Positions 1-13,309 of a stretch of 13,309 nucleotides of DNA are shown here, one piece after another. Made by a program: the position numbers and the translations under genes. This DNA comes from a virus. The notes below the pieces were generated by a model that saw only the letters and a list, made by a program, of their open reading frames with translations, was not told where the DNA came from and ran no database searches. Location: positions 1 to 13,309 of IMG/VR virus record IMGVR_UViG_3300045988_117795. One strand, given 5' to 3'. Each line of letters opens with the position of its first letter. The stretch's first letter is position 1.

Positions 1-378
1 AAAGTGTATCCATTGATTTTCGCGGACATTTGTTCACCCCACGTGGACACTCTGTTTGTCTCTAGCACATGGACAGTGTACACACATCATAGACAGTCAT
101 ATGACCATGTACAAAAGGTACAATGTATTTGTCACTGATATGTTTCACGTGAAACAACACATAGTTAGTCATGCCTAACACATCCGGAACAGTGTACACG
201 GCTCACGCACAAAACAGTGTATTTGTTTTCGAACATTTTGACAGTTTTTGACGAACAGAGCCGCCGGGTGTAATTATAGCCCCGGAAAAATCGTTGCGTA
301 TAGGGCCGTCCAGGGCTTCACAGACCGTTGTGTATATTGCACAAAATAGAGGGCGAATAATTGAGTAATTATTGTGTA
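1..378. repeat. Left inverted terminal repeat (ITR-L), 378 bp
   Basis: I checked block by block that 1-378 equals the reverse complement of 12932-13309 with no mismatch. Identity breaks at nt 379 (g, versus t expected from 12931). The repeat starts exactly at the window edge with AAAGTGTA. It contains no convincing ORF and is AT-rich and palindrome-rich. Confidence 0.97.
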
Positions 379-454
379 GTATTTAGACTTGACGTATGGT
401 AATATATAGACAAGCCCAAAAGGGTGAAACAAAAGAAAAGGACGGGAAACAAAA

Positions 455-661
455 ATGTACAAGCCAGGAACTTATATTGTAACGTGGGACGATGACCGGG
501 GCGAATTTCATCGGGGTCCGATTTTTGATAATGAACTTGATGCCAGGGCATTTGCAAATCGCATCTGGACACACCACGATGTGGTGGAAGTTGAAATTGT
601 TAAGTGTATATACAAAAATAAGCGGCGGCATCCGGTAACGGTAGCTAGTGCACACAAATAA
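455..661 (+). CDS. Hypothetical 68-aa protein; the only plus-strand gene, at the left end
   Basis: ATG at 455. Double stop TAATAA at 659-664, followed within 6 nt by an 8-bp GC hairpin. The composition is protein-like (MYKPGTYIVTWDDDRGEFHRGPIFDNELDARAF...). The SD is weak (GGGA 7 nt upstream). No family recognised. Confidence 0.55.
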   Translation: MYKPGTYIVTWDDDRGEFHRGPIFDNELDARAFANRIWTHHDVVEVEIVKCIYKNKRRHPVTVASAHK

Positions 662-669
662 TAAACAAA

Positions 670-692
670 GCCCCCGGTTTCTCGCCGGGGGC
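670..692. terminator. Bidirectional intrinsic terminator between convergent transcription units
   Basis: gcccccgg-tttctcg-ccgggggc forms a perfect 8-bp GC stem with a 7-nt loop. On the minus strand the hairpin is followed by TTTGTTTATTATTT (complement of 655-669). On the plus strand it is followed by the weaker CATTATTA. It lies between the end of ORF 455-661 (+) and the end of the minus-strand structural operon. Confidence 0.8.
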
Positions 693-716
693 CATTATTA
701 CAGGCAAATCTTGATT

Positions 717-758
717 TTACGGGTTTTCTTGTCGCCAGTCCTGATTGATAATTGCCAT
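717..758 (-). CDS. 13-codon micro-ORF (MAIINQDWRQENP) with a perfect SD; doubtful
   Basis: AAGGAGG-ttataat-ATG: a full consensus SD 7 nt upstream of the ATG at 758, with TAA at 717-719. It lies between the fibre gene stop and the terminator. It was too short for the ORF track. No other support. Confidence 0.2.
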   Translation of the reverse strand: MAIINQDWRQENP

Positions 759-775
759 ATTATAACCTCCTTAAA

Positions 776-1228
776 CTACGCCGTCCTGACGTAGATATTG
801 AAATTTGTTTCTTTGTAATCTCCACCATCATTTGTTAGTTTAACAGTGGCCATTCCCAATTTGCCGGTTACCGTCACAGGCTGTCCATAGTTCCCGGCCC
901 TCACCCAGGTCCCGCCGGTCAACGCTTGCAATCTAGCAATCACTTTGGAATCGCTTTCCACCGGCATAGTCTGATTTCTGTAGTTGACATAAACAGAACC
1001 GACAGGATATAGTTTAGCGAACATTGTTGTAATATCTCTTACACTTTCCTGTGCGCTTGTCGCCGCCGCCTGTGCATCCGTCAACGCCTTTTGAATACCT
1101 GCCCCCGGCTCTCTTACGTAGGTCCATAACTCTGTCACTTTATCAACGCAAGTCTTGACCGCATCAAGAATCCAGTCCAGGTTAAGCTGGTGTGTGTCCG
1201 GGTATGGAAAGTGGTTAAAAAGTCCCAT
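776..1228 (-). CDS. Short tail fibre / receptor-binding protein (phi29 gene-12 position)
   Basis: ATG at 1228 with AAGGAGGTG 6 nt upstream. It is the last gene of the structural operon, directly after the lower-collar gene. The N-terminal FPYPDTHQLNLDWIL motif and an internal YPVGSVY motif resemble, from memory, the N-termini and cores of tail fibre/spike proteins of Firmicutes phages. Ends in TAG. Confidence 0.6.
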   Translation of the reverse strand: MGLFNHFPYPDTHQLNLDWILDAVKTCVDKVTELWTYVREPGAGIQKALTDAQAAATSAQESVRDITTMFAKLYPVGSVYVNYRNQTMPVESDSKVIARLQALTGGTWVRAGNYGQPVTVTGKLGMATVKLTNDGGDYKETNFNIYVRTA

Positions 1229-1241
1229 AAATTACACCTCC

Positions 1242-1895
1242 TTAGTATACCATTATACAAAACCGGTGTTTGAAATCGTCTATAATATACGTCTCCAAAT
1301 CGTTGCGGCGCATATCAAGTTCTTCCCGCATCATCTGTTGGGTAGTCGTAACACCGATATTACCGTATAGGTGTGCCGTATGTTTCACGCTTGTTTCTCT
1401 TGTTACTGTATTGTTACTATTGTTCGTGGCACTTGCCGTACTGTTAGCAGTGTCTGTCCCGGCATTTTTTGTGCGGTTTTTGAAAGTTTCTGTGTTAAAT
1501 GCCGTTTCGGATTCAGTGCTTTCGTTCGTTCCGTTCGCCGTGCTTTCGGTATTGCTAGTACTGTTACTCGTTCCTGTTTCTTTTTCGGTATTTGTGTCCG
1601 TGTAGTCCTCATTCCGGTCAAAATTGTGTATGGGGTTGTACTCGGCCGTCAATGCGGCTTCCACCCTCTGCCATTCCGGTAGTCTGGTATTGCTCCACGC
1701 TTTTAGAATCCGCTTGAACACATCAGCATTCGGGTAGAGGGCTTCCAACTGCCCCAATTCAGACAGAATTTCATCGACAAACTCTGCTTTATTTGCAGAA
1801 ATGGAATCCGGTAAAGCAAAATCGTCAAAAATAGTGGAGTCGTAGTTATACAGTCCCAGGTAACTGACCGTCGGGCGCATCCTGTTCCAGCACAT
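1242..1895 (-). CDS. Lower collar / head-tail connector protein (gp11 position) with an S/T/N-rich insert
   Basis: Assigned by synteny, as it lies immediately downstream of the portal gene. I moved the start to the ATG at 1895 because AAGGAGG lies 9 nt upstream; the track start at 1919 is a GTG without an SD. It overlaps the portal 3' end by 50 nt. 217 aa, with a 71-residue low-complexity segment. Confidence 0.5.
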   Translation of the reverse strand: MCWNRMRPTVSYLGLYNYDSTIFDDFALPDSISANKAEFVDEILSELGQLEALYPNADVFKRILKAWSNTRLPEWQRVEAALTAEYNPIHNFDRNEDYTDTNTEKETGTSNSTSNTESTANGTNESTESETAFNTETFKNRTKNAGTDTANSTASATNNSNNTVTRETSVKHTAHLYGNIGVTTTQQMMREELDMRRNDLETYIIDDFKHRFCIMVY

Positions 1896-2775
1896 TTGCA
1901 AATTCCTCCTTGTTCTCACGCCAGTCTACGGAAATTTCGATACCAAACATCTGTTTGGTTTTCTCGCAACTTTCCAGCCAGCCCTCTAGCCAGCTATCAG
2001 CCATGCACCGGGTTTCAAAATTGTTAATACCAATTTCGCCACTCGCTGTGCGCTCCCTCTTGTTATAGTTAGCGTTAGGTATGCCCACGGTGGTACAGAA
2101 CATATTATCGATATTTAGCAGTGCTTCTATCAGCCGGTCAGAAATGTAATTCTGCCCCACGTTTTGCTCAAAAAACGGGGTGCTGAACTCTCCATCGTCG
2201 GTGAACATGGACTTGTCAACTACAACTGCGGGGTCGCCGCTTGCCACACGGTCAAAAGCCTTCTTGAAACTTTCCGCAGTGGCATGATTTTTCGCCCCGA
2301 AAACATACGCCAGCCGGGAATTGAAAAGGTTAACCCCCATAGCCTGCGCCGCCAGTGCCATATAATCCCCGTAAAAGCTGACCAGGTCCATAATGCCGCC
2401 CCAATCCCGGGTACATTTGAAAACTGTACACTGCTCATTGATAATAGGGGATTTGATACCTTGCAATAGCGGGTTTGCGATATAATACTGCCGTGGCTGA
2501 TAGAATACATTGTATCCTGACGGCTGACCGCCCTGCGGAATCACTCCGTACTTGTCCGTCTCGATAATTGCTACGGACCCTCCGATATAGAGCGAATATA
2601 GGAAATAGTCCTTGCTCCAAAACTCTGGCATTGTCCACTCAAAGACAGACATGGCCTTTTGGAGCAAATACCGCCGGAAAAATGTGGCTGTTGCGGTGTT
2701 GGTTACATGGACTCCGGACGGAGATGTTTTTGCATCAATCACGTTTGAGTAATTGTAATAGTATGGTAAATCCAA
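1846..2775 (-). CDS. Portal / upper collar connector (phi29 gp10-like)
   Basis: 309 aa, the same length as phi29 gp10. FEWTMPEFW corresponds to phi29 FEWENLP, and NKRERTASGEI corresponds to phi29 KKERMVTDEV (both remembered sequences). TTG start at 2775 preceded by AGAGGTGA 6 nt upstream. Its position between the tail knob/lysin genes and the lower collar fits. Confidence 0.8.
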   Translation of the reverse strand: MDLPYYYNYSNVIDAKTSPSGVHVTNTATATFFRRYLLQKAMSVFEWTMPEFWSKDYFLYSLYIGGSVAIIETDKYGVIPQGGQPSGYNVFYQPRQYYIANPLLQGIKSPIINEQCTVFKCTRDWGGIMDLVSFYGDYMALAAQAMGVNLFNSRLAYVFGAKNHATAESFKKAFDRVASGDPAVVVDKSMFTDDGEFSTPFFEQNVGQNYISDRLIEALLNIDNMFCTTVGIPNANYNKRERTASGEIGINNFETRCMADSWLEGWLESCEKTKQMFGIEISVDWRENKEEFANVLEQDAPDGQLPGTV

Positions 2776-2781
2776 TTTGTG

Positions 2782-3342
2782 TCACCTCTTTGCCATATAC
2801 GGCTTGAATTTGAAAAGCATCCAAGCGGGAATCCCCGTCGGAGTGGGAACCGGTCCGGGTGGAAAATCCGGGTGGTAGATAAACCCCTGAAATGCATAGT
2901 TGCCATTGATTAGCCATTGCGCCATGTTGGTATTTCCAACTGTTGTGTTGGTCCAGAAATACCCCTCCATATCCGGGGGATATTCGGTCAACGGTCTACG
3001 CCATGCGGATTGCGATATAAGCAGGGTCCCGTCAGTGTTGACCCGCTCCACCACTGCCACGTGACCGGCCCCGCCGTCCAGGTCCTCATAACACGCAACG
3101 GCCCCAACCTGTGGAACCTGTCCGGTCCGGTATGCGCCACTCGCTAGGGCATCTGACCACCACTCGCCGCCGTTGGAAGTTGGTAGTGCCGGACGGCCCC
3201 CACCAATTTCCCAAAAACGGCCCCAGGCATAGCAAGTGCAGTTAGGTAGACCATAGCCCGACTGATAAAACACATTATCAGTATAGTATTGTGAATTCTG
3301 CCACATTCCGTTAGAATCCAGACGTGGAACAAATGTAGACAT
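2782..3342 (-). CDS. CHAP-domain peptidoglycan hydrolase, probably tail-associated (gp13-like role)
   Basis: Candidate catalytic Cys in NCTCYAWGRFWEIGG and candidate catalytic His in GHVAVVERV, with spacing typical of CHAP domains. The ATG at 3342 overlaps the tail-knob stop (TAATG). It is embedded in the tail module rather than the lysis cassette. Confidence 0.75.
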   Translation of the reverse strand: MSTFVPRLDSNGMWQNSQYYTDNVFYQSGYGLPNCTCYAWGRFWEIGGGRPALPTSNGGEWWSDALASGAYRTGQVPQVGAVACYEDLDGGAGHVAVVERVNTDGTLLISQSAWRRPLTEYPPDMEGYFWTNTTVGNTNMAQWLINGNYAFQGFIYHPDFPPGPVPTPTGIPAWMLFKFKPYMAKR

Positions 3343-4769
3343 TAGTCCAAATACACCCCGCTCTGTAACTGTGCTACAATCGCTTGTTTCTCCTCCGGGA
3401 ACATTCCGACACCATCGTCAGAGGCGAGTACAGTACCGCATTGTACATAACCTCCGATATGTGTCCGCAACTGTGCAAAGCCTCCAAAAGGCAGCCCCAC
3501 CACATTCGCCACCGGGGCTTGAGAAGTGTAAAACCGGCTATGAAGTACGGGATTTTCTGCAAATCCTGCAACACTGCCATTTGTTCCGCTGGTAGATGGA
3601 GCCGGGATTAGTGATTCGGCGGCATTTAGCACACCATTTACAGCTCCTCCAATGTCGAGCGAAAAACCGGAACCAACGGCAGATAGCACATTTTTAGCGG
3701 CGCCGATATAGTCATTGACGATTTGCCCAATCTGTAACGGCACACCGATTTGCACACTACCGGCGGCTAGGTCCGTTGTCGCTCCGTTTGCCGCAACTGT
3801 ATAGATTTTATATGGAGACGCTCCTGTGCAAAAATCAATCAGCACTTGCAAACGCAAGTCAGTATTGTGATTGCAACTCATGTCCAGAGGGATTGTCCCA
3901 ATCGGTGCCCAGTACAAATCCCTCAGTGTAAAAGGTGCAGTTTCGACAAATAGCCCCCTGTCGGTAAACTGTGGGTGCAATGGCATTGTACACTTAAATT
4001 CAAATGTTCTAGTCGTTGTACCAATTCTAAATCCGGTAACGGTGAAATTCCACCATCCAAAAGGCATAGAGAAAGTCGAATTTGCGAACCCTTGCGGAAA
4101 AGTTGGGAACCACATACAACTGGTAATATATTGTAGCGGATTGAATAGGGCTTTGAACAAACTTTCGGAAATATCTGTAATTCCTGAGAACGCCCAGTTT
4201 GGGGACTCCATCAGCTTTTTGCAAAACGATCGGAAGTTGGTGTTGTCAAATGCGTAGTATGATACGCACCCAACGCTATTTGCATCACTGTTGAGTATGC
4301 CGACTACATAATATCCGTCTTTGAGATTGTAGGCCATATTACCCGTCAATGTGGGTAATAATGTGGTGGTGGTCTGGTCACCAACGGCCTGAACCGGTGT
4401 GATATAATCTGGAATGCTGGTACTGGTTAAGGTAGACGAACGGTTGACATACGCATTGAATGTTAAAATTGTGTTACGATATGTAGCCAATACGTCAACA
4501 TCAAGATAACATATCCACATACCGGAATCATACTCCCAGCGTCTCACCCAGTAATACCGGGATGTTTCCGGGATGAACGCATAGTTGATGTTACGGGGCA
4601 TATATGACACACCGGCTTCGTTGGCTCCAAACCACAATTTTACGACAGGGTGCAAAATGTCAAATGGTTCGACAAATTCACCCTCATACCTCCATGTGGA
4701 TTTTGAAAAATCTTTAATTTGTGTAGAATTGTACGGTTTTCCGGTAGTTTCGAACACCAAATTGACCAT
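3342..4769 (-). CDS. Tail knob / distal tail tube protein (phi29 gp9-like)
   Basis: 475 aa. The N-terminal pattern NYAFIPETSRYYWVRRWEYDSGMWICYLDVDVLATY parallels phi29 gp9 YIMFQNADYGNKWFYAFVT...FEIDVLQTW (memory). It lies directly downstream of the capsid gene, as in phi29. ATG at 4769 with AAGGGGTGA 4 nt upstream. Confidence 0.7.
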   Translation of the reverse strand: MVNLVFETTGKPYNSTQIKDFSKSTWRYEGEFVEPFDILHPVVKLWFGANEAGVSYMPRNINYAFIPETSRYYWVRRWEYDSGMWICYLDVDVLATYRNTILTFNAYVNRSSTLTSTSIPDYITPVQAVGDQTTTTLLPTLTGNMAYNLKDGYYVVGILNSDANSVGCVSYYAFDNTNFRSFCKKLMESPNWAFSGITDISESLFKALFNPLQYITSCMWFPTFPQGFANSTFSMPFGWWNFTVTGFRIGTTTRTFEFKCTMPLHPQFTDRGLFVETAPFTLRDLYWAPIGTIPLDMSCNHNTDLRLQVLIDFCTGASPYKIYTVAANGATTDLAAGSVQIGVPLQIGQIVNDYIGAAKNVLSAVGSGFSLDIGGAVNGVLNAAESLIPAPSTSGTNGSVAGFAENPVLHSRFYTSQAPVANVVGLPFGGFAQLRTHIGGYVQCGTVLASDDGVGMFPEEKQAIVAQLQSGVYLD

Positions 4770-4786
4770 ATAATCACCCCTTGTTT

Positions 4787-4811
4787 ATATGCCCCCATAA
4801 AGGGGGCATAT
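4787..4811 (-). promoter_or_regulatory. Perfect 10-bp stem-loop between the capsid and tail-knob genes
   Basis: atatgccccc-ataaa-gggggcatat. On the minus-strand RNA it lies 6 nt after the capsid stop. It is not followed by a U tract (AAACAAGG follows), so it is more likely an attenuator or a 3'-end stabiliser than a full terminator. Confidence 0.5.
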
Positions 4812-4816
4812 TTTAA

Positions 4817-5986
4817 TCAATCCAGACACAAAACAATTCCGTTTTCCGTGAAATCGTTCATCCAACGCACGGTGTAATGGTCCCAACGAACACTGTAACC
4901 GCCCCGGGCGTTAAGCGGGGTAGTGCCGCTCCACTCGTTAATAAGGCTTGCCCTGATAGCTTCCTCGTCAAAAATTACCCCGAAAACGTCAGCAGTAACA
5001 GCAGACGTTGCGGTGGTAATGGTGCCATCGGGTGCCAGATAGGACGGGGTAACATTGACGGTTGCGGGGCTGTCAATGGACTGCCAGAAACTGACCGGCT
5101 CAAAATCCACAACTTTCAGGTAATCATCGTTGTAGGTGGTGGACATGACGGTCGTGTCAATCATGTTCGCATCATCGGAGAGCAAATACACCTTCTGTCG
5201 GTCCAGCGGGGTATGGCGGGTAATGGGCTTGCCGGTTACATTGATATGATATTTGACGGTCCGATTGGTCAACTTTTCGGACAGCGTACGGATATAACCC
5301 AGCATCCAGCGGCAAAAATCCGTCCAGTTTTCGGGCTGTCTCACGGTTTCGGCAGTGAGGGTCTTTCCGGTGATTCCGTTGTACTTGGTAACAAGGTGGA
5401 TAACGTTGTCCGTGTCACCCTTGAGTTTGCCGCCGATAAAGTTCAGCACTGCCAGCCGGGCTTCCGTTTCCTTATCCTGCTGAACCATATCGTCAAGATT
5501 CTGATACAACATCGCCCAGAAACGGCCCAGTTCGGCGGGGCTGGAAAATGCCACGTCCAACTGGTCCTTAAAAATGGGCAGGTCCCGGGAGTAGGTGTTC
5601 CCGCCGTAGAAATTCAGCTGAAGAATCTTCGGCTTGTGAATCTCATACATATCAACGGACTGATTGTCCGCAAGAGTGTACTCCACGTTATTCTCCGGGT
5701 CCTTGTCCACAACCTGGACTTTGCGGGTATAGCCGCCCCATTTCTGACTGTCAACGTACAAACCGCTGAATTTCCCACGATAAGGACGGATGGAAAAATA
5801 GGTGGTAGACAGCACCTGACTGATTGCGTTCAGCAGGTTATCATAACCGCATTTAAGGGCAGTCGTGCCGACACTTGCAAAGTTGGCAGTGGTAATTTCA
5901 CCAACATCTGCCGCTCCTCTGACCTGTGCCAGCGTAGCCTTCAGAAGGGTGCTTACCTGTTCAAAATTGAGTTCATTCTGTGCCAT
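4817..5986 (-). CDS. Major capsid protein
   Basis: 389-aa ORF immediately after the scaffold gene and before the tail knob (phi29 gene-8 position). ATG at 5986 with AAAGGAG upstream. It has the largest uninterrupted structural-type composition. The call rests on synteny and size, not on a named motif. Confidence 0.75.
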   Translation of the reverse strand: MAQNELNFEQVSTLLKATLAQVRGAADVGEITTANFASVGTTALKCGYDNLLNAISQVLSTTYFSIRPYRGKFSGLYVDSQKWGGYTRKVQVVDKDPENNVEYTLADNQSVDMYEIHKPKILQLNFYGGNTYSRDLPIFKDQLDVAFSSPAELGRFWAMLYQNLDDMVQQDKETEARLAVLNFIGGKLKGDTDNVIHLVTKYNGITGKTLTAETVRQPENWTDFCRWMLGYIRTLSEKLTNRTVKYHINVTGKPITRHTPLDRQKVYLLSDDANMIDTTVMSTTYNDDYLKVVDFEPVSFWQSIDSPATVNVTPSYLAPDGTITTATSAVTADVFGVIFDEEAIRASLINEWSGTTPLNARGGYSVRWDHYTVRWMNDFTENGIVLCLD

Positions 5987-6002
5987 TGTTCATATACTCC
6001 TT

Positions 6003-6353
6003 TCACTTCTTACCCCGGTTTCTGCCGGGGTCCAGGATACTAGCGGCAACGTCTGCCGCCGTCATTTCGGTATCGGTCTGCCGGGACACGTTAATCATGG
6101 CCCCCTGAACAGCTTTCATCATATCCTCAAACTGTTTCTGCATGGTGGACATCATTTCCTCCATGGGGGACTTCTCCGGCTCCTGCTTCTGCTCCTGCTT
6201 CTTCTCCGGCTCCTGCTTCTGCTCCTGCTTCGGGGGGTCCTGCTTCAGGGCTTCCTGCTTCGGGGTTTCATCCGTCAAAATGGGGGCCAGGGCTACAATC
6301 TGTTCAGCCGTGAAACCCGCATCTTTCAGAGCGGTAATCTGTTCGATTTTCAT
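6003..6353 (-). CDS. Scaffolding protein
   Basis: 116 aa, highly charged and helical-looking, with a K/Q/E/P repeat core (KQEQKQEPEK twice). It lies directly upstream of the capsid gene. Its ATG overlaps the endolysin stop (ATGA). Confidence 0.65.
   Translation of the reverse strand: MKIEQITALKDAGFTAEQIVALAPILTDETPKQEALKQDPPKQEQKQEPEKKQEQKQEPEKSPMEEMMSTMQKQFEDMMKAVQGAMINVSRQTDTEMTAADVAASILDPGRNRGKK
6171..6230. repeat. Perfect 30-bp tandem duplication inside the scaffold gene
   Basis: cttctccggctcctgcttctgctcctgctt occurs at 6171-6200 and again identically at 6201-6230. In frame it encodes KQEQKQEPEK twice. Confidence 0.95.
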
Positions 6354-7021: not shown

Positions 7022-7024
7022 ACA

Positions 7025-7228: not shown

Positions 7229-7393
7229 AAATTTTCCCCTTTCATGTTCGTTTTTTGGTTGCGGGCCGGGGGAGTTGCACCCACCGCTCGCCATTCTCGC
7301 CGCTACTCGCTCCTGCAAATGCGTGACCCCGTTCTTGCGGTGGACTGCCGCACGGGCTTCCTTCCGGGAGTGTCCTTGCCCACGGGGTCACTA
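7229..7393 (-). ncRNA. GC-rich structured RNA element: 5' leader of the late/lysis operon, or a discrete RNA such as a prohead-RNA candidate
   Basis: This ~165-nt interval has no credible ORF and lies directly downstream of a consensus promoter. By hand count, 93 of 136 nt (7261-7396) are G or C. This is visibly higher than the rest of the window, which I did not count. A three-way junction can be drawn: 7323-7330 pairs with 7384-7391 (8 bp), enclosing hairpins tgcgg/ccgca and gggc/gccc. A second bulged G-rich/C-rich hairpin lies at ~7263-7291. Function unknown. Confidence 0.45.
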
Positions 7394-7398
7394 CGCAC

Positions 7399-7427
7399 AA
7401 TATAGCACATTTGTTTGATTTTGTCAA
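7399..7427 (-). promoter_or_regulatory. Near-consensus sigma-A/sigma-70 promoter for the late/lysis operon
   Basis: The minus strand reads TTGACA (7427-7422), a 17-nt spacer, then TGcTATATT (7407-7399). This is a perfect -35 with an extended -10. The predicted start is ~7392. The -35 hexamer contains the ATPase TGA stop codon. Confidence 0.75.
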
Positions 7428-8467: not shown

Positions 8468-8484
8468 GCTAACCCTCCATATAG

Positions 8485-8505
8485 CAAAAGCCCGGTTTCC
8501 CGGGC
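8485..8505 (-). terminator. Intrinsic terminator after the SSB gene
   Basis: The minus-strand RNA reads GCCCGG-GAAA-CCGGGC followed by UUUUG: a 6-bp GC stem, a GNRA-type tetraloop and a U tract. It starts 14 nt after the SSB stop and ends ~17 nt before the ATPase ATG. Confidence 0.65.
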
Positions 8506-8519
8506 CTTTGATGTGAAAC

Positions 8520-8864
8520 TTAGTCGGCGTACACGCAGTTGATAAACTCCCTGCCGCCCTTGCTGGTGCCGGTGGAAACACGGATGTGGTGAACGTCCAG
8601 TCCGGTCTTAGCGAAACATTCCAGCATCGCCTCGAAAGACTCGATGAACGTTACGGAGTTCGTGGCATACATCTTTTCTCCGGACTTGATAGAGAGGATT
8701 TTCCGCATCTCACCGGTCTTGCGGTCGGCATCCGCAAACAATGCCCACTTGTCAAGGGCCAGTGTCTCACCCTTAACAGAGGTCATTTTCTCGATTTCCG
8801 GGGACGTGGTGAGAAAATACAGGTCTGCGCCCTCTACGTTCTTGCTCATTTTGATAATTTCCAT
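8520..8864 (-). CDS. Single-stranded DNA-binding protein (phi29 p5-like), tentative
   Basis: 114 aa. The C-terminal HHIRVSTGTSKGGREFINCVY resembles phi29 p5 FKVKVVQGTSSKGNVFFSLQL, and the preceding YATNSVTFIESFEAML resembles YSAISKTVAEAASDLI (memory). It has its own consensus promoter. ATG at 8864 with AAAGGAAG 8 nt upstream. Confidence 0.5.
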   Translation of the reverse strand: MEIIKMSKNVEGADLYFLTTSPEIEKMTSVKGETLALDKWALFADADRKTGEMRKILSIKSGEKMYATNSVTFIESFEAMLECFAKTGLDVHHIRVSTGTSKGGREFINCVYAD

Positions 8865-8902
8865 TGTTGTTGCTTCCTTTCAGTTTTTGATTTTTATTTT
8901 GT

Positions 8903-8915
8903 GTTGGATTCCAAC
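8903..8915. promoter_or_regulatory. 13-bp palindrome GTTGGA-T-TCCAAC at about +1 to +14 of the SSB promoter (operator candidate)
   Basis: Perfect 6-bp arms around one central base. It lies 8 nt downstream of the -10 hexamer, within a 59-nt 5' UTR. Confidence 0.3.
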
Positions 8916-8922
8916 CGTCTAT

Positions 8923-8951
8923 ATTATATCAGTGCCTATTCCATTTGTCAA
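8923..8951 (-). promoter_or_regulatory. Consensus sigma-A/sigma-70 promoter in front of the SSB gene
   Basis: The minus strand reads TTGACA (8951-8946), a 17-nt spacer, then TGaTATAAT (8931-8923). Both hexamers are perfect and the TGn extension is present. The -35 hexamer contains the polymerase TGA stop. Confidence 0.8.
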
Positions 8952-11047
8952 TGTTTTTCTTTTGTAATTTCCCTTAACAATTTGTCATATTCTGCCGTGA
9001 TACCTAGTTGATACGTACTATCTCTAATCACTACATTAGCAGTTATCGGTAGTATGTGTCCGTCAACAGATAGAGACGTGATAGCCGGGTGGTCGTTGTA
9101 CATCAGTTCGGCACCACCAGCCCTGCGGAACAAAAAGCCAGGATTTGTGTTGACAAACCGCTCCAACCCCTTGCCGTACTCGTCCCCGGCGTCCAACTCC
9201 GAACCGCCCTCTTTTTTACTTACTCCGGCTATAGTGACGTGTGTTTTCCCGTTTTCGTCCGTGTATGCGTACTTTTTGGCCCCCAAAGTTGCAAAAGTGG
9301 GGTATTTTCCATCCGGTTCAAACACGCCCATATAATGGGCTTCGCCGGAAGGGTCAACAGCCCAGGCCCCAGACTTTTTGCTTGCCGCTATACGGTCATT
9401 ATTATATGGTGTCCAGTCGGGGAGAACATTTGTCTCTAGGTACTTGACAGAATCGGTGTCACAATATACAAATCTGGTTCCCACCAAATCAATACCGAGT
9501 TGCAAGTGGTATCTCGCCCAAGCCGTTGTCCAAACACCCCACGCATATGTCAAAAAGGCATTACGCTGAGCATCTGCAAGGGCTTCACCAATATCCAAGG
9601 CATCTTCGCCCCATTCTCCATCAAAATAGACCTCAGGCTTTGCGGGGTTTTGCGCCGTCATACCATATACGCTATTCAACTTCGCCTTGCTTTTTGCGTA
9701 TATAAGTTCCTGCCCGGGGACGTTCTTCAACTCCGTCTTTTTGTGATAAAGGTCACACAAAACTCCCACCATTTCCGGCGGCAACTTGCCATAGGTGGAG
9801 TAATAGCCGCTTATCACGGTAAAAACCCCGGTGTAATGGTCAACGATAACTTGCAAGTCAATATCCGTCACTGTCAACTCTAGATAGTCGGCGGCAATCA
9901 CTCGCCCATTGTCATAGACCCCGCCCACAATATTCCGGCACTTATCCCTTGGGATATATGGGCATCCGTCTGATATATGCCGTAAATGGCAATTTGATAT
10001 AGCAATCCGGGCCAGTGTTGCAGTTCCTCTTTTCTGCATTGTCAAAAGTCTATCCACTGTGGACAGGCCCAGCTTTTTGAACTCACCCATCGGAAATAGA
10101 TTATTGCACTGGACATCCGGGTAACTGCTGGAACGGTCTGCCGATATTACATTGTGTAATACTTTCCCGGCATAATGGCGGTTGGCGTGAGTATTCCCAC
10201 CCCGGAACGCTTCACGGAGATAGGTATATACTTCCGTATCTGGAAAGATTGCACGAATTTTATAAACCAACTCTTTATTGCTTCGTATGGCATTTCTCAC
10301 GTCTCGCCGTACATAACCGGTTGACGTGCGGGGGATAGTATCCAGTGTATCACCGTCCGCTTGCATTTCATTTGCTAGTGCTTCGCATAGTCCTTGGGTA
10401 TCGTTTGTACAGTATGCAAGTTCATTTTGTGTCATTTCTGTCCACGGGAATCGGATTTTTGTATAATCGAACTCTTTTCCAGATAGTTTTGTGTGTTCGG
10501 CGTGCATTTTGTTCGTAAATGTGTCCAAACTCATATTAGAATGCAGATATGAACATCTAAATTCTATATTACCCCATGTACAAGCAAGGACTTTCCGGGA
10601 CTTTACCGCCATAACATCTTCCCGATGGAAATTGTGAATGCCGGAAAGAAACTGGAATTCATACGACAAATTATGAACCCATATCACAAGCCGGTAATCA
10701 TTTTGCACAATATACTCGTTCCAACCGTCAATCATGGCGGTAAATTCATCCCACGTCCTGCCTATTATCATACACTTTTCGTGTAGACACAAAGTCCAGA
10801 TATACATGATTGATTGCTCATTCCGGCGGGTTTCTACCCATTCGCCCCTGATTTTCTCCGGGGCTGATAGTTCGGGAAAATCTTCCGGCTTTAGCCGGGT
10901 TGTTTCAATGTCAAAAGCGGCAATTTGATTTAGCGTGACCGCCTCATTTCTTGCGCTTTGTTTTTTTCGTCCCCCCTTGCTTTCCAGAGGTTTTGCCGCT
11001 TGTAGATACGGGAGCGCGCTTCCGGCGGTTATTCTTTTTAACTCCAT
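8948..11047 (-). CDS. Protein-primed family-B DNA polymerase
   Basis: Exo I AFDIETT, Exo II HNLSYEFQF, Exo III YCTNDTQGLCEAL, motif A DRSSSYP, motif B KAKLNSVYG, motif C VYCDTDS, and KxY GAKKYAY. Order and spacing match phi29-type polymerases. Start set to the ATG at 11047 (AGGGAGG 9 nt upstream), giving 699 aa; the track start at 11086 is a GTG without an SD. Confidence 0.95.
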   Translation of the reverse strand: MELKRITAGSALPYLQAAKPLESKGGRKKQSARNEAVTLNQIAAFDIETTRLKPEDFPELSAPEKIRGEWVETRRNEQSIMYIWTLCLHEKCMIIGRTWDEFTAMIDGWNEYIVQNDYRLVIWVHNLSYEFQFLSGIHNFHREDVMAVKSRKVLACTWGNIEFRCSYLHSNMSLDTFTNKMHAEHTKLSGKEFDYTKIRFPWTEMTQNELAYCTNDTQGLCEALANEMQADGDTLDTIPRTSTGYVRRDVRNAIRSNKELVYKIRAIFPDTEVYTYLREAFRGGNTHANRHYAGKVLHNVISADRSSSYPDVQCNNLFPMGEFKKLGLSTVDRLLTMQKRGTATLARIAISNCHLRHISDGCPYIPRDKCRNIVGGVYDNGRVIAADYLELTVTDIDLQVIVDHYTGVFTVISGYYSTYGKLPPEMVGVLCDLYHKKTELKNVPGQELIYAKSKAKLNSVYGMTAQNPAKPEVYFDGEWGEDALDIGEALADAQRNAFLTYAWGVWTTAWARYHLQLGIDLVGTRFVYCDTDSVKYLETNVLPDWTPYNNDRIAASKKSGAWAVDPSGEAHYMGVFEPDGKYPTFATLGAKKYAYTDENGKTHVTIAGVSKKEGGSELDAGDEYGKGLERFVNTNPGFLFRRAGGAELMYNDHPAITSLSVDGHILPITANVVIRDSTYQLGITAEYDKLLREITKEKH

Positions 11048-11657
11048 CTTCTGCCGCCTCCCTGTATTCCTTCCGCAACGTTCCACCCGCAGAGGATTTT
11101 AGAAATTCTGCAAAATTCGCCTTTACCTTTTCCGGGTCAATGTTCAATTCCTTCATATCCCTAATTAGGTCAATGATTTGTTCACTATCATACATTTCTG
11201 CAAGGCCCTGATGGATACGCATATTCAAAAATTCCGTGAACAAATGGAAATCCTCATTTGTGCTGATAAAGTCAATCCCACGGGACTGGAATGCTTCAAT
11301 GTGTTTATTTATATTTTTCCTAATGCCTCTTATGGTAGTTTTTTGCGGCTTCTCGAAAAATTCAACTAGATTTTGCAATCCAACGGCAAGGTCTGCGGGG
11401 TTGGTCAACTTGCTAGCCGGTCTGAGATACTCCTCAAACGTTTTATATCCATCTGTCCAAGCAAATCCGGCCTTTTTGATACTCCGCAGACGTTGCATTG
11501 CCGTTTTGCGTAGTCTGATATACTCGTCCTTTGCAGACCGTACGGCATTAGGGTCCCCGGCCCAATCATAGACTTTCGACGGGTCGTAGTAGTAATCCGG
11601 GAGCTGGTAACGGCTCCCCTCTGGTTTTAACCATTTTGTTTGCTTTCGTCTTGCCAT
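10944..11657 (-). CDS. Terminal protein (TP) candidate
   Basis: It lies immediately upstream of, and overlapping, the polymerase gene, as phi29 gene 3 does. 237 aa from the ATG at 11657, similar in size to phi29 TP. YIRLRKTAMQRLRSIKKAG resembles phi29 TP YARLVKNTKAKIARTKKKYG (memory). Both termini are strongly basic. A linear genome with an ITR requires a TP. Confidence 0.6.
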   Translation of the reverse strand: MARRKQTKWLKPEGSRYQLPDYYYDPSKVYDWAGDPNAVRSAKDEYIRLRKTAMQRLRSIKKAGFAWTDGYKTFEEYLRPASKLTNPADLAVGLQNLVEFFEKPQKTTIRGIRKNINKHIEAFQSRGIDFISTNEDFHLFTEFLNMRIHQGLAEMYDSEQIIDLIRDMKELNIDPEKVKANFAEFLKSSAGGTLRKEYREAAEDGVKKNNRRKRAPVSTSGKTSGKQGGTKKTKRKK

Positions 11658-11818
11658 TTCCAATACCCCAACTTAAAAAGCCGGTTAAACTCATACATTG
11701 CTTCTGTCCACCAAAAACAATGTGGTGGTTGTTTAAACGCAAATTGCACCACTTTAACAGCTTTAGAGTGGCTGTCCGGCATGGACAAAATCCGCTTCCA
11801 CATATTGACAGCTTTCAT
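11627..11818 (-). CDS. Hypothetical early protein, 63 aa, Trp-rich
   Basis: ATG at 11818 preceded by GAGGGGAG 5 nt upstream and placed 1 nt after the TAA of the preceding gene. I rejected the track's longer 111-aa version because its N-terminal part overlaps the upstream gene out of frame. No family recognised. Confidence 0.55.
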   Translation of the reverse strand: MKAVNMWKRILSMPDSHSKAVKVVQFAFKQPPHCFWWTEAMYEFNRLFKLGYWKWQDESKQNG

Positions 11819-11819
11819 A

Positions 11820-12182
11820 TTATCTCCCCTCACATACTTCTGCAATCTCGTCTGTAATGTAGCCATACATTCCGGCGCAGGTGTGGACGTACCGTTGGCA
11901 CGTCTTGCAGTTGGGAATGATACGGTCCCGGATTTTCCATGGCAATTTACGGATATAAGCACACAGGTCTATATCTTTTACCGTTGCCCAAGTGGTGGTA
12001 TATACGTCCCCATAGTATGCCGTAGGGGCATAGGGGATATATTTCCCGGTCGATTTGTCCACGGCATAGGGGGCACAATGTACGCCCTGGATTATTGCCG
12101 CCGCGAACTTGCCGTCCTTAACTAAGATTGCATCGTTGTGGCCTTTTACCAAGTGCCAACCATCTGTATATATTTTACTCAT
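11820..12182 (-). CDS. Hypothetical early protein, 120 aa, with C-terminal Cys/His cluster
   Basis: ATG at 12182 with GGAGG 11 nt upstream; the track start at 12200 is the TTG inside that SD. NCKTCQRYVHTC plus two earlier Cys residues suggest a small metal-binding element. No family recognised. Confidence 0.6.
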   Translation of the reverse strand: MSKIYTDGWHLVKGHNDAILVKDGKFAAAIIQGVHCAPYAVDKSTGKYIPYAPTAYYGDVYTTTWATVKDIDLCAYIRKLPWKIRDRIIPNCKTCQRYVHTCAGMYGYITDEIAEVCEGR

Positions 12183-12184
12183 TG

Positions 12185-12475
12185 TTACCAAAACCTCCAA
12201 ATTTTTAACTCTAAATCAGTTTTGTTTCCGGCGCACAACATCGGAAATGTTTTATACTCCCACCACTCGGACCCGTCATAGCTATCTCTTTCCAACCACC
12301 AATCTTCACCCACTACTACCAAATCTTCCGGAACCTCTGGAATACCGTAACTATTATCATATTCAATATTTTCAGCTTGCTTTTCAAATTCACCCCAACT
12401 ACATACCGCATTTATACTTCTGCGCCCAACCCATATAACATCATTAGGGTTTTTCCGTGCTCTCTCAATACGGCT
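12185..12475 (-). CDS. 96-codon open frame with no canonical start, in frame with the upstream ORF across a single TAG
   Basis: I translated the minus strand by hand: SRIERARKNPNDVIWVGRRSINAVCSWGEFEKQAENIEYDNSYGIPEVPEDLVVVGEDWWLERDSYDGSEWWEYKTFPMLCAGNKTDLELKIWRFW*. There is no ATG, GTG or TTG until codon 52. The TAA (12187-12185) lies 2 nt from the next gene's ATG, and that gene's SD lies inside this frame. This is the usual coupled-gene layout. The frame is absent from the ORF track because it lacks a start. Confidence 0.45.
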   Translation of the reverse strand, partial: SRIERARKNPNDVIWVGRRSINAVCSWGEFEKQAENIEYDNSYGIPEVPEDLVVVGEDWWLERDSYDGSEWWEYKTFPMLCAGNKTDLELKIWRFW

Positions 12476-12718
12476 CTAGTCTCCCGCAAAAGATTCATCG
12501 CTTACACGCCTCCTATAATATACCCGATAGCAATAACTTGTGCTGTCCCAACGGGGGAGCAACACATATTTCTCCCCGGCTCTGCGGCCACCGGCAACAC
12601 CCGTTATCAAGTTGTCGCTATCTTTCAAGCGGCGGGACACATAGCCCCGTTCGGATTTAATGTCATACACAACAATTTTTCCATTTTCATAAGCATGTGC
12701 AAATTCACCGTATGTCAT
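12476..12718 (-). CDS. Hypothetical early protein, 80 aa, ending in TAG
   Basis: ATG at 12718 with GGAGG 9 nt upstream, placed 1 nt after the TAA of the preceding small ORF. Basic and aromatic-rich (YCYRVYYRRRV). No family recognised. See the readthrough finding. Confidence 0.65.
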   Translation of the reverse strand: MTYGEFAHAYENGKIVVYDIKSERGYVSRRLKDSDNLITGVAGGRRAGEKYVLLPRWDSTSYCYRVYYRRRVSDESFAGD

Positions 12719-12719
12719 T

Positions 12720-12845
12720 TTACTTTACCTCCAAGATTTTCTCAGGCAAATACCCAGCTTTAACAAGTTCAATCGCCCGGCATTCCATTTCTTTATACTG
12801 TTCATCGCCGTCATTTTCATACGTCCATTTAAGCATTTTTGCCAT
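12720..12845 (-). CDS. Hypothetical first early protein, 41 aa
   Basis: Hand translation: MAKMLKWTYENDGDEQYKEMECRAIELVKAGYLPEKILEVK*. ATG at 12845 with AAAGGA ~10 nt upstream, 42 nt downstream of the predicted start of the right-end promoter. Its stop is tightly coupled to the next ORF. It falls below the ORF-track length cutoff. Confidence 0.45.
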   Translation of the reverse strand: MAKMLKWTYENDGDEQYKEMECRAIELVKAGYLPEKILEVK

Positions 12846-12893
12846 TGTCTTTTCGTCCTTTCATATCGGGAGTTCCTCTCCCTTTGTGATTAT

Positions 12894-12921
12894 ATTATAC
12901 CACACATCCTTCTAATTTCAA
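12894..12921 (-). promoter_or_regulatory. Right-end early promoter, firing inward
   Basis: The minus strand reads TTGAAA (12921-12916), a 16-nt spacer, then TGgTATAAT (12902-12894). It lies 11 nt inside the ITR boundary and upstream of the whole early gene string. Confidence 0.75.
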
Positions 12922-12931
12922 GTTGGAATAA

Positions 12932-13309
12932 TACACAATAATTACTCAATTATTCGCCCTCTATTTTGTGCAATATACACAACGGTCTGTGAAGCCCTGG
13001 ACGGCCCTATACGCAACGATTTTTCCGGGGCTATAATTACACCCGGCGGCTCTGTTCGTCAAAAACTGTCAAAATGTTCGAAAACAAATACACTGTTTTG
13101 TGCGTGAGCCGTGTACACTGTTCCGGATGTGTTAGGCATGACTAACTATGTGTTGTTTCACGTGAAACATATCAGTGACAAATACATTGTACCTTTTGTA
13201 CATGGTCATATGACTGTCTATGATGTGTGTACACTGTCCATGTGCTAGAGACAAACAGAGTGTCCACGTGGGGTGAACAAATGTCCGCGAAAATCAATGG
13301 ATACACTTT
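12932..13309. repeat. Right inverted terminal repeat (ITR-R), 378 bp
   Basis: Exact reverse complement of 1-378. It ends exactly at the window edge (...ATACACTTT-3'). Confidence 0.97.

Follow-up and report, generated by a model that had tools for sequence, protein, structure and literature searches.

Among the described systems closest to the locus studied here is phi29, a Bacillus phage (Salasmaviridae, Picovirinae) with a linear genome of 19.3 kb and the terminus AAAGTA. A 2024 survey gathered 2115 sequences related to phi29, among them 13.8-kb MAGs from the human gut. The small protein-primed podophages AD70P2 and AD70P3, which infect gut Bacillota and are filed under Guelinviridae, have been cultured as well. 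Clostridium phage HM2, for which host and source are not recorded, was grouped with these two as a near system.

We compared these phages with a stretch of DNA of 13,309 bp (the window). The window very probably spans the whole linear genome of a phi29-like phage that is virulent and short-tailed and would belong to a large, uncultured and unclassified group of 12–14 kb human-gut phages. The features of the window are collected in Table 1; its promoter-like sites are consensus matches only.

Table 1. Features of the 13,309-bp window in order of position.
Feature	Position	Strand	Remarks
Left inverted terminal repeat (ITR)	1..378	.	Perfect identity with reverse complement of right end
Palindrome TGTTTCACGTGAAACA, perfect, 16 nt, in ITR	141..156; second copy 13154-13169	.	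2 matches versus 0.06 expected
ORF, 68 aa	455..661	+	Only plus-strand ORF; doubtful reality; called in ENA contig
Hairpin terminator, G+C-rich	669..693	.	Between convergent fibre gene and 68-aa ORF
Small fibre/receptor-binding candidate, 150 aa	776..1228	-	Weak T4 gp10-like matches
Lower collar candidate (gp11-like), 217 aa	1242..1895	-	phrog_3225 4e-4; hhalign versus gp11 89.5%, 42 columns
Portal/upper collar connector (gp10-like), 309 aa	1846..2775	-	PF05352 5.7e-16
CHAP peptidoglycan hydrolase in tail module, 186 aa	2782..3342	-	PF05257 7e-18
Tail knob (gp9-like), 475 aa	3342..4769	-	AlphaFold model and Foldseek
Major capsid protein, phi29-type, 389 aa	4817..5986	-	Phi29_MCP 3.9e-14
Scaffold candidate, 116 aa	6003..6353	-	KQEQKQEPEK repeats; assigned only by position upstream of capsid gene
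Endolysin, 223 aa	6350..7021	-	N-acetylmuramoyl-L-alanine amidase (Amidase_3) and SPOR domain
Holin, 67 aa	7025..7228	-	phrog_4898 1.2e-10; also called as 67 aa in relatives
RNA 3' extension or leader	7262..7322	-	Variable hairpin and invariant T-loop-like hairpin GGGUGCAACUCCC (7282-7270)
Structured RNA core, three-way junction	7323..7391	-	Covariation
RNA P3	7351-7348 with 7340-7337	-	Loop GUCC at 7345-7342
RNA inner hairpin	7369-7359	-	Loop CGGAA
RNA internal loop	7377-7370	-	GGAC at 7375-7372
RNA P2	7381-7378 with 7357-7354	-	
RNA P1	7391-7382 with 7332-7323	-	
Promoter-like site at ATPase stop codon	7399..7427	-	TTGACA-17-TATATT, TG
DNA packaging ATPase, gp16-type, 347 aa	7424..8467	-	PF05894 5.5e-19; hhalign versus gp16 99.5%
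SSB, gp5-like, 114 aa	8520..8864	-	PF17427 0.0036 (below cut-off); clade profile versus phi29 gp5
Promoter-like site ahead of SSB and ATPase genes	8923..8951	-	Perfect consensus TTGACA-17-TATAAT, TG
PolB (protein-primed)	8948..11047	-	PF03175 1e-13; phrog_1907 2e-61
Terminal-protein (TP) candidate, 237 aa	10944..11657	-	Directly upstream of PolB, overlapping it
Early ORF, 63 aa	11627..11818	-	Also called in ENA contig
Early ORF, 120 aa, Cys-rich	11820..12182	-	93% identical in close relatives
Variable accessory slot	12184..12494	-	No convincing gene in window; absent in L005
Early ORF, 80 aa	12476..12718	-	ORF call, compared with relatives
Early ORF, 41 aa	12720..12845	-	Also called in ENA contig
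Early promoter-like site at inner ITR boundary	12894..12921	-	TTGAAA-16-TATAAT, TG extension; kept in L004, L005
Right inverted terminal repeat	12932..13309	.	Same repeat, opposite end

Comparison of the gene content with phi29

As in phi29, the linear genome starts with AAAGT, a gene in the TP position lies directly upstream of that for a protein-primed PolB, and a gp5-like SSB, a gp16 ATPase, a phi29-type capsid protein, a gp10 connector, a gp11-like collar and a gp9 knob are encoded. The structural genes also follow the phi29 order of scaffold, capsid, knob, portal, collar and fibre, as the initial annotation had stated (with a lysin gene after the knob). First among the differences, the window measures 13.3 kb and its ITRs 378 nt, compared with 6 nt for the ITRs of phi29. 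All genes except one small ORF are on the minus strand, whereas phi29 has divergent early and late units. The ATPase and lysis genes lie upstream of the head genes, unlike in phi29; the phi29 head fibre, the gp12 appendage and recognizable p4, p6 and p1 are lacking, and the CHAP protein replaces the gp13 lysozyme/peptidase. No nucleotide similarity was found between the window and phi29.

About 19–20 genes were found, in agreement with the first count of about 20. The phi29-type module set that had been proposed is present, with the scaffold, fibre and TP assigned from position and family conservation rather than from homology to named proteins. In the profile comparison, PolB aligns with phi29 gp2 over 476 columns (hhalign 98.9%, 27% identity), taking in Exo II/III, motifs A, B and C, KxY and the TPR1/TPR2 stretch. 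The clade profile of the SSB likewise matches gp5 (hhalign 95%, more exactly 94.9%; E 4e-8). For the TP candidate, neither Pfam, PHROG, PDB and BFVD nor the phi29 profile comparison revealed homology to a named TP. The model of this candidate is all-helical (pLDDT 76), Y46, T108, G111, G127, Y156 and S158 are invariant, and its MYDSE motif (Y-D-S-E) resembles F-D-S232-E of phi29. From its position, size, helical model and the invariant Ser in the Y-D-S-E motif, we infer that this protein is the TP, with Ser158 (or Tyr156) as its putative priming residue.

In the head and tail modules, the knob model (pLDDT 81) matches phi29 gp9 in Foldseek (E 1e-10, TM 0.5), and its residues 349–392 form a low-confidence Gly/Ala-rich loop. 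The scaffold candidate has no HMM match in Pfam, PHROG or the phi29 profile comparison, and the weak matches of the 217-aa protein suggest that it may be a gp11-like lower collar. The CHAP hydrolase is probably virion-associated, judging from its gene position. The fibre candidate has a conserved N-terminus and a variable C-terminus; its gene shows only ~70% nucleotide identity to close relatives, compared with 85–90% for the rest of the genome. In relatives, the accessory slot is occupied by a PAPS_reduct gene (294 aa) or by an ORF of 209 aa. No homologue of the 68-aa plus-strand ORF was found in the relatives.

Structured RNA between the ATPase and holin genes

Behind the strong promoter at the ATPase stop codon, the TTGACA box of which is conserved across the clade, lies an RNA with a 65–70 nt three-way-junction core. 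Covariation strongly supports this structure, including a loop–loop helix arranged as in the phi29 pRNA: the GGAC and GUCC loops are paired in 94.5% of cells, with 18 two-sided changes versus 3.0 in shuffles. This conserved structured RNA is new to Rfam, and its layout resembles that of the phi29 packaging RNA (RF00044). In both, a closing helix is formed by the 5' and 3' ends, followed by the C helix, a 5'-side internal loop, the small E hairpin that caps this arm, and the neighbouring D hairpin, whose loop is complementary to the internal loop and covaries with it. The core is shorter than that of phi29 (~117 nt), its arms have 4–5 bp compared with ~10 and 6 bp, and it opens the late operon instead of lying at a genome end. 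No sequence or covariance-model similarity links the two RNAs. The covariance model of the window RNA also gave no match in two genomes of the AD70P2, AD70P3 and HM2 group. In the 3' extension, the GGGUGCAACUCCC hairpin is identical to the T-arm of the tymovirus TLS (Rfam E = 4, not significant). The initial annotation did not consider a pRNA, which the phi29-type packaging motor needs.

We tentatively read the RNA as a cis-acting leader of the late (holin–lysin–structural) operon, with chances slightly short of even. Such a riboswitch-like, protein-binding or processive antitermination element would set when the late genes are expressed, given that the consensus promoter would otherwise be constitutively active, and the loop–loop helix would be an intramolecular pseudoknot. 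The late transcription unit always begins with this RNA, even where the module is inverted (L006, L001), which speaks for a leader and against a packaging role. Both side arms have 4–5 bp, so on geometric grounds intramolecular pairing of the loops is conceivable; these equal arm lengths fit a cis pseudoknot and likewise count against a packaging RNA. The unpaired CGGAA loop and the AAGA junction are invariant across genomes with polymerases just 41–54% identical. Palindromic candidate operators adjoin the RNA in many relatives, and in L019-type genomes intrinsic terminators follow the RNA with no space for a new promoter. However, no terminator is present in the genus of the window, no obvious mutually exclusive pairing exists between P1 and a terminator or ribosome-binding site, and even at E <= 10 the RNA matches none of the riboswitch or leader families in Rfam.

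It is possible, if rather doubtful, that the same RNA is instead the packaging RNA of the group, a counterpart of the phi29 pRNA that would form a prohead ring through intermolecular GGAC–GUCC pairing. The shared order of elements and the covarying loop complementarity agree with this role, as do the strong promoter of the RNA and the separate terminator that it has in several subgroups; the phage also encodes a gp16-type ATPase and a gp10-type portal, the phi29 counterparts of which need pRNA. However, Rfam finds no match in the window, including RF00044, although that model finds the phi29 pRNA at 145 bits, and the covariance model of the window RNA does not find the phi29 pRNA. In phi29, a basic RKR-type segment at the portal N-terminus binds pRNA, and the portal of the window lacks such a segment.

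Lifestyle and relatives

We infer a virulent lifestyle, and the host is probably a Gram-positive Clostridia-type bacterium. No tRNA was found and no scanned ORF matched a Pfam or PHROG integrase or repressor, which bears out the first reading of the sequence. The best bacterial relatives of the endolysin, from Oscillospiraceae MAGs, are just 44% identical. Alternatively, the window could be a satellite, or a linear protein-primed element that is plasmid-like or persists in a carrier state, as do some Enterococcus 'plasmids' related to phi29, but this is very unlikely. The 2024 survey does include relatives of phi29 that were deposited as plasmids of Enterococcus and Clostridium; however, the window encodes complete head, tail, packaging and lysis modules, the Pfam and PHROG scans found no partition, integrase or repressor families, and the relatives are stand-alone 12–14 kb contigs.

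The genome had been thought novel and near the lower size limit of tailed phages, but neither view holds. Related phages of 10.4–12.3 kb are present in GenBank, namely Vibrio K58 g2 (10,390 bp), the Salmonella astrithr group, Acinetobacter Phanie and Pectobacterium DU_PP_III (11.2–11.9 kb), and Amedibacillus AD70P2/P3 (12.2–12.3 kb). The gene order, with the ATPase upstream of the head genes, is shared by >100 gut contigs of 12–14 kb, and the window is ordinary for its group. Similarly, the placement of the ATPase and lysis cassette upstream of the head genes is as first described but not peculiar to the window, since this placement and the one-strand layout are the rule in >70 related 12–14 kb gut contigs. 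Among the best 80 of 123 confirmed IMG/VR loci, contigs mostly end at 12–14.2 kb, and knob and TP homologues never occur on contigs >15.7 kb.

The closest relatives, L004 (IMGVR_UViG_3300045988_070639, 13,220 bp) and L005 (_057159, 13,212 bp), share the gene order and long ITRs, with proteins 83–98% identical to those of the window and ~85–90% nucleotide identity over ~11.7 kb; they differ in the accessory slot and left-end content. The usual species threshold is 95% nucleotide identity, and thus the window represents a new species of an unclassified group. AD70P3 also has the ATPase upstream of the head genes and a largely one-strand layout, but the polymerases of AD70P2, AD70P3 and HM2 are just 34–35% identical to that of the window, and where the window encodes the 150-aa fibre, AD70P3 carries a distal tail gene for a product of 578 aa.

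Genome ends

The window equals its own reverse complement over the first 378 nt, with the first mismatch at position 379, which confirms the perfect repeats reported at both edges; extended to 392 nt (1–392 versus 12918–13309), the arms are 99% complementary. The left ITR starts with 5'-AAAGTGTATC and holds three ACAGTGTA repeats, at 73, 189 and 214. All 6 occurrences of this repeat in the window (0.27 expected) are within the ITRs. The TGTTTCACGTGAAACA palindrome is a candidate operator or protein-binding site, and its 14-nt core recurs in 64 of the 98 loci retrieved, often immediately ahead of late genes.

The capsid protein is recorded on a JGI/IMG contig whose length is exactly 13,309 bp, and therefore the window is the whole contig. 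Together with the ITRs at its edges, this supports the original proposal of a whole linear genome of a phi29-type short-tailed phage. The independent relative L004 (~85% nucleotide identity) has its own 416-nt ITR, just 81% like that of the window, and L005 has one of 403 nt. Despite this divergence, the 10-nt AAAGTGTATC is found at both ends of L004, which supports real ends and phi29-style sliding-back. ENA contig ERZ1310127 NODE_3616 (12,553 bp) is identical to window positions 379–12931 with 0 mismatches and corresponds to the unique sequence between the ITR arms, ending at either repeat junction. Since this sole independent assembly found is without both ITR arms, the arm-to-unique junctions rest on one contig and on analogy with relatives.

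That the ITR is an assembly artefact (a fold-back, strand-switch chimera or graph mis-join), the true genome being limited to the unique 12,553 bp or else longer, is highly improbable. The ENA assembly does end exactly at both repeat boundaries and gut virome papers caution about ITR artefacts, but a true two-copy inverted repeat breaks a de Bruijn graph at both boundaries, whereas with a one-sided artefact the contig would run through one arm. Every one of L004, L005, L006, L007 and further relatives has an ITR of its own, identical within a genome and diverged between genomes; the AAA start and terminal 10 nt are shared by L004; and each of the three close genomes has the early promoter at its ITR boundary.

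Proposed replication, expression and packaging

By analogy with phi29, the TP encoded just upstream of the polymerase would prime DNA synthesis at both ends, and the 3'-TTT template end would allow synthesis to initiate at an internal T and then slide back. We propose that the use of each end as an origin keeps the two ITR arms identical. Transcription would run nearly all one way from three strong sigma-70-type promoters, in a presumed temporal order. The promoter at the right ITR boundary would drive the early genes, TP and polymerase, that at the end of the polymerase gene the SSB and ATPase, and that at the end of the ATPase gene the structured RNA, holin, endolysin, head and tail genes. 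Lastly, the gp16-type ATPase would package unit-length TP-DNA through the gp10-type portal, and the tail would consist of the collar, the gp9-type knob, the CHAP wall hydrolase and the small fibre.

Genome ends and completeness

A self-comparison showed that the first 378 nt of the window are the reverse complement of the last 378 nt, with the first mismatch at position 379, which confirms the perfect terminal repeats reported in the initial annotation; at 99% identity, the arms reach 392 nt. The window is the whole contig, since its capsid protein is on record on a JGI/IMG contig of 13,309 bp. An independent ENA assembly of the same sequence, ERZ1310127 NODE_3616 (12,553 bp, reported in three samples), matches window 379–12931 with 0 mismatches. 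It ends at both repeat junctions, which is what a true two-copy inverted repeat does to an assembly graph, whereas with a one-sided fold-back artefact the assembly would have run on through one arm.

The terminus reads 5′-AAAGTG and, with its AAA start and reiterated terminal base, can be compared with the AAAGTA terminus described for phi29. The close relative L004 (IMGVR_UViG_3300045988_070639; 13,220 bp) is ~85% identical to the window over 11.7 kb, with a polymerase identity of 92%. Its ITR of 416 nt is only 81% like that of the window, yet both ends open with the same AAAGTGTATC. In L005 (IMGVR_UViG_3300045988_057159; 13,212 bp), another close relative, the ITR of 403 nt starts at the equivalent of window position 76, so that this end is evidently truncated. 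Arms that are identical within a genome yet diverged between genomes, together with the conserved terminal decamer and the reiterated terminal base, argue for real physical ends. By analogy with phi29, the ends suggest replication from both sides by protein priming with sliding-back. The terminal sequence had no match among JGI metagenome contigs. Taken with the phi29-type gene set, the ITR and the conserved terminus support well the earlier view of a complete protein-primed podophage genome, which we regard as very probably correct.

Each ITR carries three ACAGTGTA repeats, a total of 6 with the mirror copies where 0.27 would be expected across the whole window. They resemble the terminal AAAGTGTA and may be binding sites for replication proteins. 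The ITR was also considered as a structured RNA or a pRNA gene, for which the fold z-scores (−1.0 and −1.7) give no support.

Gene content

Every ORF of substantial size is on the minus strand. Starting at the right end, these are four small ORFs, the terminal protein (TP) candidate, polymerase, SSB, packaging ATPase, holin, endolysin, scaffold candidate, capsid, 475-aa knob, CHAP hydrolase, gp10 connector, 217-aa collar candidate and 150-aa fibre candidate. The polymerase is a 699-aa family B enzyme of the protein-primed type (PF03175; phrog_1907, 2e-61). Its clade profile aligns to residues 21–548 of phi29 gp2 at 98.9%, with ExoII, ExoIII, motifs A, B and C and KxY all aligned and the TPR1 and TPR2 regions aligned at low column confidence. 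The clade profile of the 114-aa SSB matches phi29 gp5 at 95% (E 4e-8). The gp16-type ATPase (PF05894; hhalign 99.5%), the gp10-type connector (PF05352; hhalign 99.0%) and the phi29-type major capsid protein (PF25622) all score above the curated cut-offs. Support for the capsid and holin comes from Pfam and PHROG and not from hhalign against single phi29 proteins, for which none of the scaffold, holin, fibre and capsid profiles was significant.

The 475-aa protein has no HMM match. However, its AlphaFold model, built from 70 homologues (pLDDT 81), matches the crystal structures of the phi29 tail knob gp9 (5fb5 and 5fb4) with a Foldseek E of 1e-10 and a probability of 1.00. The sole low-confidence stretch of the model is the Gly/Ala-rich segment of residues 349–392; phi29 gp9 has a long membrane-active loop, and the comparison suggests that this segment may correspond to it. 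The lower collar candidate shows weak similarity (phrog_3225, 4e-4; hhalign against gp11 89.5% over 42 columns), and a PDB sequence search with the fibre and collar proteins returned nothing. The fibre candidate has a conserved N-terminus and a variable C-terminus; the C-terminal two-thirds of its gene is ~70% identical to L003–L005, related phage loci, against 85–90% elsewhere in the genome. Receptor-binding domains under diversifying exchange typically show such divergence. The protein in the scaffold position is repeat-rich (116 aa, with versions of 100–116 aa in relatives), and direct repeats of the CTCCTGCTT type, with a period of 12–18 nt, encode its KQEQKQEPEK repeats. A 388-aa ORF antisense to the capsid gene is most likely a shadow ORF; its translation is of low complexity.

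The TP is the weakest-supported module of the genome. The candidate, immediately upstream of the polymerase gene and overlapping its start, has 237 aa against 266 aa for the phi29 TP, and both proteins have a basic N-terminus (MARRKQ and MARSPR, respectively). Among its relatives, which are 19–24% identical (~79% or more in the close genus), the residues Y46, T108, G111, G127, Y156 and S158 are invariant, as is the motif Y-[DG]-S. S158 lies in M-Y-D-S-E, similar to F-D-S-E around the phi29 priming serine S232. Neither Pfam nor PHROG gave a match to the candidate, it has no annotated relative among GenBank phages, and its family gave nothing against phi29 gp3 by hhalign. Its all-helical model (pLDDT 76) has no match in the PDB, 2EX3 included, and its only BFVD matches are uncharacterised 'Podoviridae sp.' proteins, with no named TP among them. 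This lack of a named match is expected, since a 2024 review finds TP homology detectable only between phi29 and its closest relatives. Judged by position, size, N-terminus and motif, the 237-aa protein is a likely terminal protein; S158 is our best guess for the priming residue, and Y156 is the alternative.

Regarding the phi29-type modules listed in the initial annotation, the polymerase, SSB, ATPase, capsid, knob and connector stand, while the TP is without named-TP homology and the collar is weak. No tRNA was found in the window by ARAGORN, and no integrase-like or repressor-like families, in line with the same annotation.

Features located in the window, with positions in nt
Feature	Position	Strand	Remarks
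ITR arms	1–378; 12932–13309
ACAGTGTA repeats	73–80; 189–196; 214–221		in the ITR, with mirror copies
16-nt palindrome	141–156; 13154–13169		one in each ITR
Lone plus-strand ORF	455–661	+	68 aa
G+C-rich hairpin terminator	669–693		after the last gene
Diverged part of fibre gene	776–1015		C-terminal two-thirds
Antisense ORF	4877–6043	+	388 aa, opposite the capsid gene
Direct repeats	6159–6277		in the scaffold-position gene
Invariant hairpin GGGUGCAACUCCC	7270–7282	−	after the RNA core
Structured RNA core	7323–7391	−	three-way junction; 3′ extension to ~7262
Promoter-like site	7427–7399	−	at the ATPase stop codon, ahead of the structured RNA
Promoter-like site	8951–8923	−	end of the polymerase gene; 12/12 consensus matches
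Accessory slot	12184–12494		between the 80-aa and 120-aa early genes
Promoter-like site	12921–12894	−	right ITR boundary
Four small early ORFs		−	41, 80, 120 and 63 aa from the right end; no family match
Holin		−	67 aa; phrog_4898
Endolysin		−	Amidase_3 + SPOR; downstream of holin
CHAP hydrolase		−	between the 475-aa knob and the gp10 connector

Comparison with related phages

Megablast with the whole window as query found no nucleotide match in 50,697 phage records; despite this, a polymerase search matched 93 phage records. Among them are unannotated human-faecal 'Bacteriophage sp.' contigs of 12–14 kb, of which MT835998 is the best match at 50% identity. Others are Clostridium phage HM2, the Amedibacillus phages AD70P2 and AD70P3 (12.2–12.3 kb) and Gram-negative phages of 10.4–11.9 kb. 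IMG/VR gave 123 confirmed related loci, and the contigs of the best 80 of these 123 cluster at 12–14.2 kb. Clustered at 90%, the capsid protein belongs to a set of 226 members, among them the GenBank entry 'MAG TPA: major capsid protein [Caudoviricetes sp.]', and a 2024 survey of 2115 phi29-related sequences places human-gut MAGs of 13.8 kb in separate clusters. With relatives at 12–14 kb, and down to 10.4 kb, a size of 13.3 kb is typical for the group and not near a minimum; the first impression of a genome close to the lower size limit does not hold against the phages of 10.4–12.3 kb on record. Likewise, the placement of the ATPase and lysis genes, which had been taken as unusual, recurs throughout the group. 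In a Guelinviridae comparison, the layout of the cultured phage AD70P3 matches that of the window, with the ATPase upstream of the head genes and largely one strand used in both, and the polymerase, capsid protein and portal are 35, 30 and 28% identical, respectively. In L006 (IMGVR_UViG_3300045988_079297) and MT835998, the lysis and structural genes form a module whose orientation is reversed with respect to that of the replication and ATPase genes, so that the units converge and the structured RNA described below stays with the late module. The early region of L006, a 13-kb contig, also contains a type II hammerhead ribozyme at 807–871 (+), with an RF02276 match of 47.1 bits that exceeds the gathering score; none is present in the window.

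Polymerases of Bacillus phages aligned over only about half of the query at ~28% identity, and neither the close sequence kinship with Bacillus phi29-like phages nor the RF00044 pRNA that mark membership of the Salasmaviridae was found. The window does have the polymerase type, the ITR with a reiterated terminal base, the ATPase, connector and capsid set and the gp9-type knob of the phi29-like podophages in the broad sense, that is, Salasmaviridae, Guelinviridae, Madridviridae, Rountreeviridae and unclassified relatives. An identity of ~85–90% to the nearest neighbours makes it a new species-level member of an unclassified genus. It is not a new kind of phage but one more species in an abundant group of very small gut podophages that is both uncultured and unclassified, and for which it can serve as a clean, end-complete reference with true termini; otherwise it is unsurprising. 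The wall-hydrolase domains point to a Gram-positive host. Against 185,579 genomes, the best bacterial relatives of the endolysin are in two Oscillospiraceae MAGs and are only 43–44% identical, a hint at a possible host too weak to name one.

Promoter-like sites, palindrome and variable regions

Three near-consensus sigma-70 promoter-like sites with TG extensions, which are consensus matches only, lie on the minus strand. The perfect 16-nt palindrome TGTTTCACGTGAAACA of the ITR is probably an operator for a regulator. Of 98 loci retrieved, 64 contain its 14-nt core in 1–5 copies each, at many positions in L004–L092, L084 and L085, and AD70P3 and HM2 have one copy each. The core is often paired just upstream of the late genes or overlaps the promoter of the structured RNA. 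The lone plus-strand ORF is without a counterpart even in L004 and L005. The accessory slot contains only ORFs of 28 and 45 aa in the window and is empty or degenerate; it is absent in L005, and is occupied by a 294-aa PAPS_reduct-family gene in the related loci L090/L091 and by a 209-aa ORF in L097/L098. Its absence from L005 rules out the slot as a pRNA locus.

A covarying RNA ahead of the late genes

The gap between the ATPase and holin genes is 195 nt long, G+C-rich and starts right after the third promoter-like site. Rfam returned nothing for the whole window at E ≤ 1, and for window 7200–7440 at E ≤ 10 only a 13-nt identity to the T-arm of the tymovirus tRNA-like structure (E = 4). RF00044 is absent from the window, and the same library scores phi29 pRNA at 145 bits. 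The fold z-score of this leader is 0.0, which is uninformative for a G+C-rich stretch; the structure was recognised by covariation instead. Aligning the gap across relatives revealed compensatory changes in an element that recurs across the whole group. When eight 65-nt cores were aligned by MAFFT, blind to structure and with no gaps, 184 of the 184 cells of 23 pairs are standard pairs and 17 pairs change on both sides, whereas sliding the partners by 1–3 columns reduces pairing to 37–48%. Over 23 distinct RNA sequences, 97.8% of cells are paired. Covariance models built from the eight-core alignment locate the RNA in 34 loci, including L006 and MT835998, where the late module is inverted and the RNA still precedes it. 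When its filters are off, the model also weakly matches a large subgroup with a 33-nt insertion in one arm, which shows the same architecture by eye. Essentially all related gut phage contigs of 12–14 kb carry the RNA, where it heads the late operon. This new element has very strong covariation support and no counterpart in Rfam.

The RNA folds into a three-way junction. P1 joins the 5′ and 3′ ends, the former being the expected transcription start. P2 (4–5 bp) is followed by an 8-nt internal loop on the 5′ side and then by an inner hairpin of 3–4 bp with an invariant CGGAA loop, and P3, of 4 bp, is capped by a 7-nt loop. In all cases the P3 loop is complementary to four nucleotides of the internal loop, with covariation between the two: GGAC/GUCC in the window, and GCAC/GUGC, GGUC/GACC, AGUC/GACU, GAAAC/GUUUC, GUAC/GUAC, AGAC/GUCU and GCUA/UAGC in relatives. 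Although this loop–loop helix lies outside the covariance model, 94.5% of its cells are paired across 29 distinct sequences, and 18 cells show changes on both sides compared with 3.0 in shuffles; 0 of 500 shuffles reach 18 double changes, and slid partners are 5–58% paired. In the genus of the window, a variable hairpin comes next after the core, and then the hairpin GGGUGCAACUCCC, which is invariant in eight close relatives. The latter is identical to the tymovirus T-arm, a match that is not significant. A hammerhead, twister or pistol ribozyme or a known riboswitch was rejected as the identity of the RNA, since their core motifs are absent and Rfam is silent.

Possible late leader or packaging RNA

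A cis-acting leader of the late operon is the reading we favour, at a confidence somewhat short of even. The element is always at the head of this operon, which speaks against a packaging RNA. In several subgroups an intrinsic terminator follows the RNA with no room for a new promoter, an arrangement that fits an attenuator-type leader.

A packaging RNA in a phi29-like lineage far from the Bacillus phages is a somewhat less probable reading. Motors of the phi29 type need prohead RNA (pRNA), and covarying loop complementarity is described as the classic pRNA signature. Covariation backs a three-way junction with A, C–E and D-type helices, and the CE-type internal loop and the D-type hairpin loop are complementary and covary. 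The order of elements also matches phi29 pRNA, in which the A helix is followed by the C helix, the CE internal loop (AACC), the E hairpin and the D hairpin (GGUU). However, covariance models detect no similarity in either direction (RF00044 against the window, and the RNA model against phi29 with filters off), and the two arms are short and equal, so that the loops might pair within one molecule. The N-terminal basic segment of the phi29 portal binds pRNA, and the N-terminus of the window portal is without such a segment. In the reviews consulted, pRNA is described only for phi29 and related Bacillus phages, and we found no report elsewhere. Some other function takes the remaining probability.

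In summary, the genome itself is unsurprising, and the RNA is the part of the window most worth following. If it is a regulatory leader, it would represent a new class of control element for phage late genes, connected with a widespread 16-nt palindromic operator. Should it be a packaging RNA, pRNA would be ancestral and widespread in gp16-type motors and not an oddity of Bacillus phages, with a minimal natural form of ~65 nt, and why gp16-type motors need RNA would become testable by comparison.
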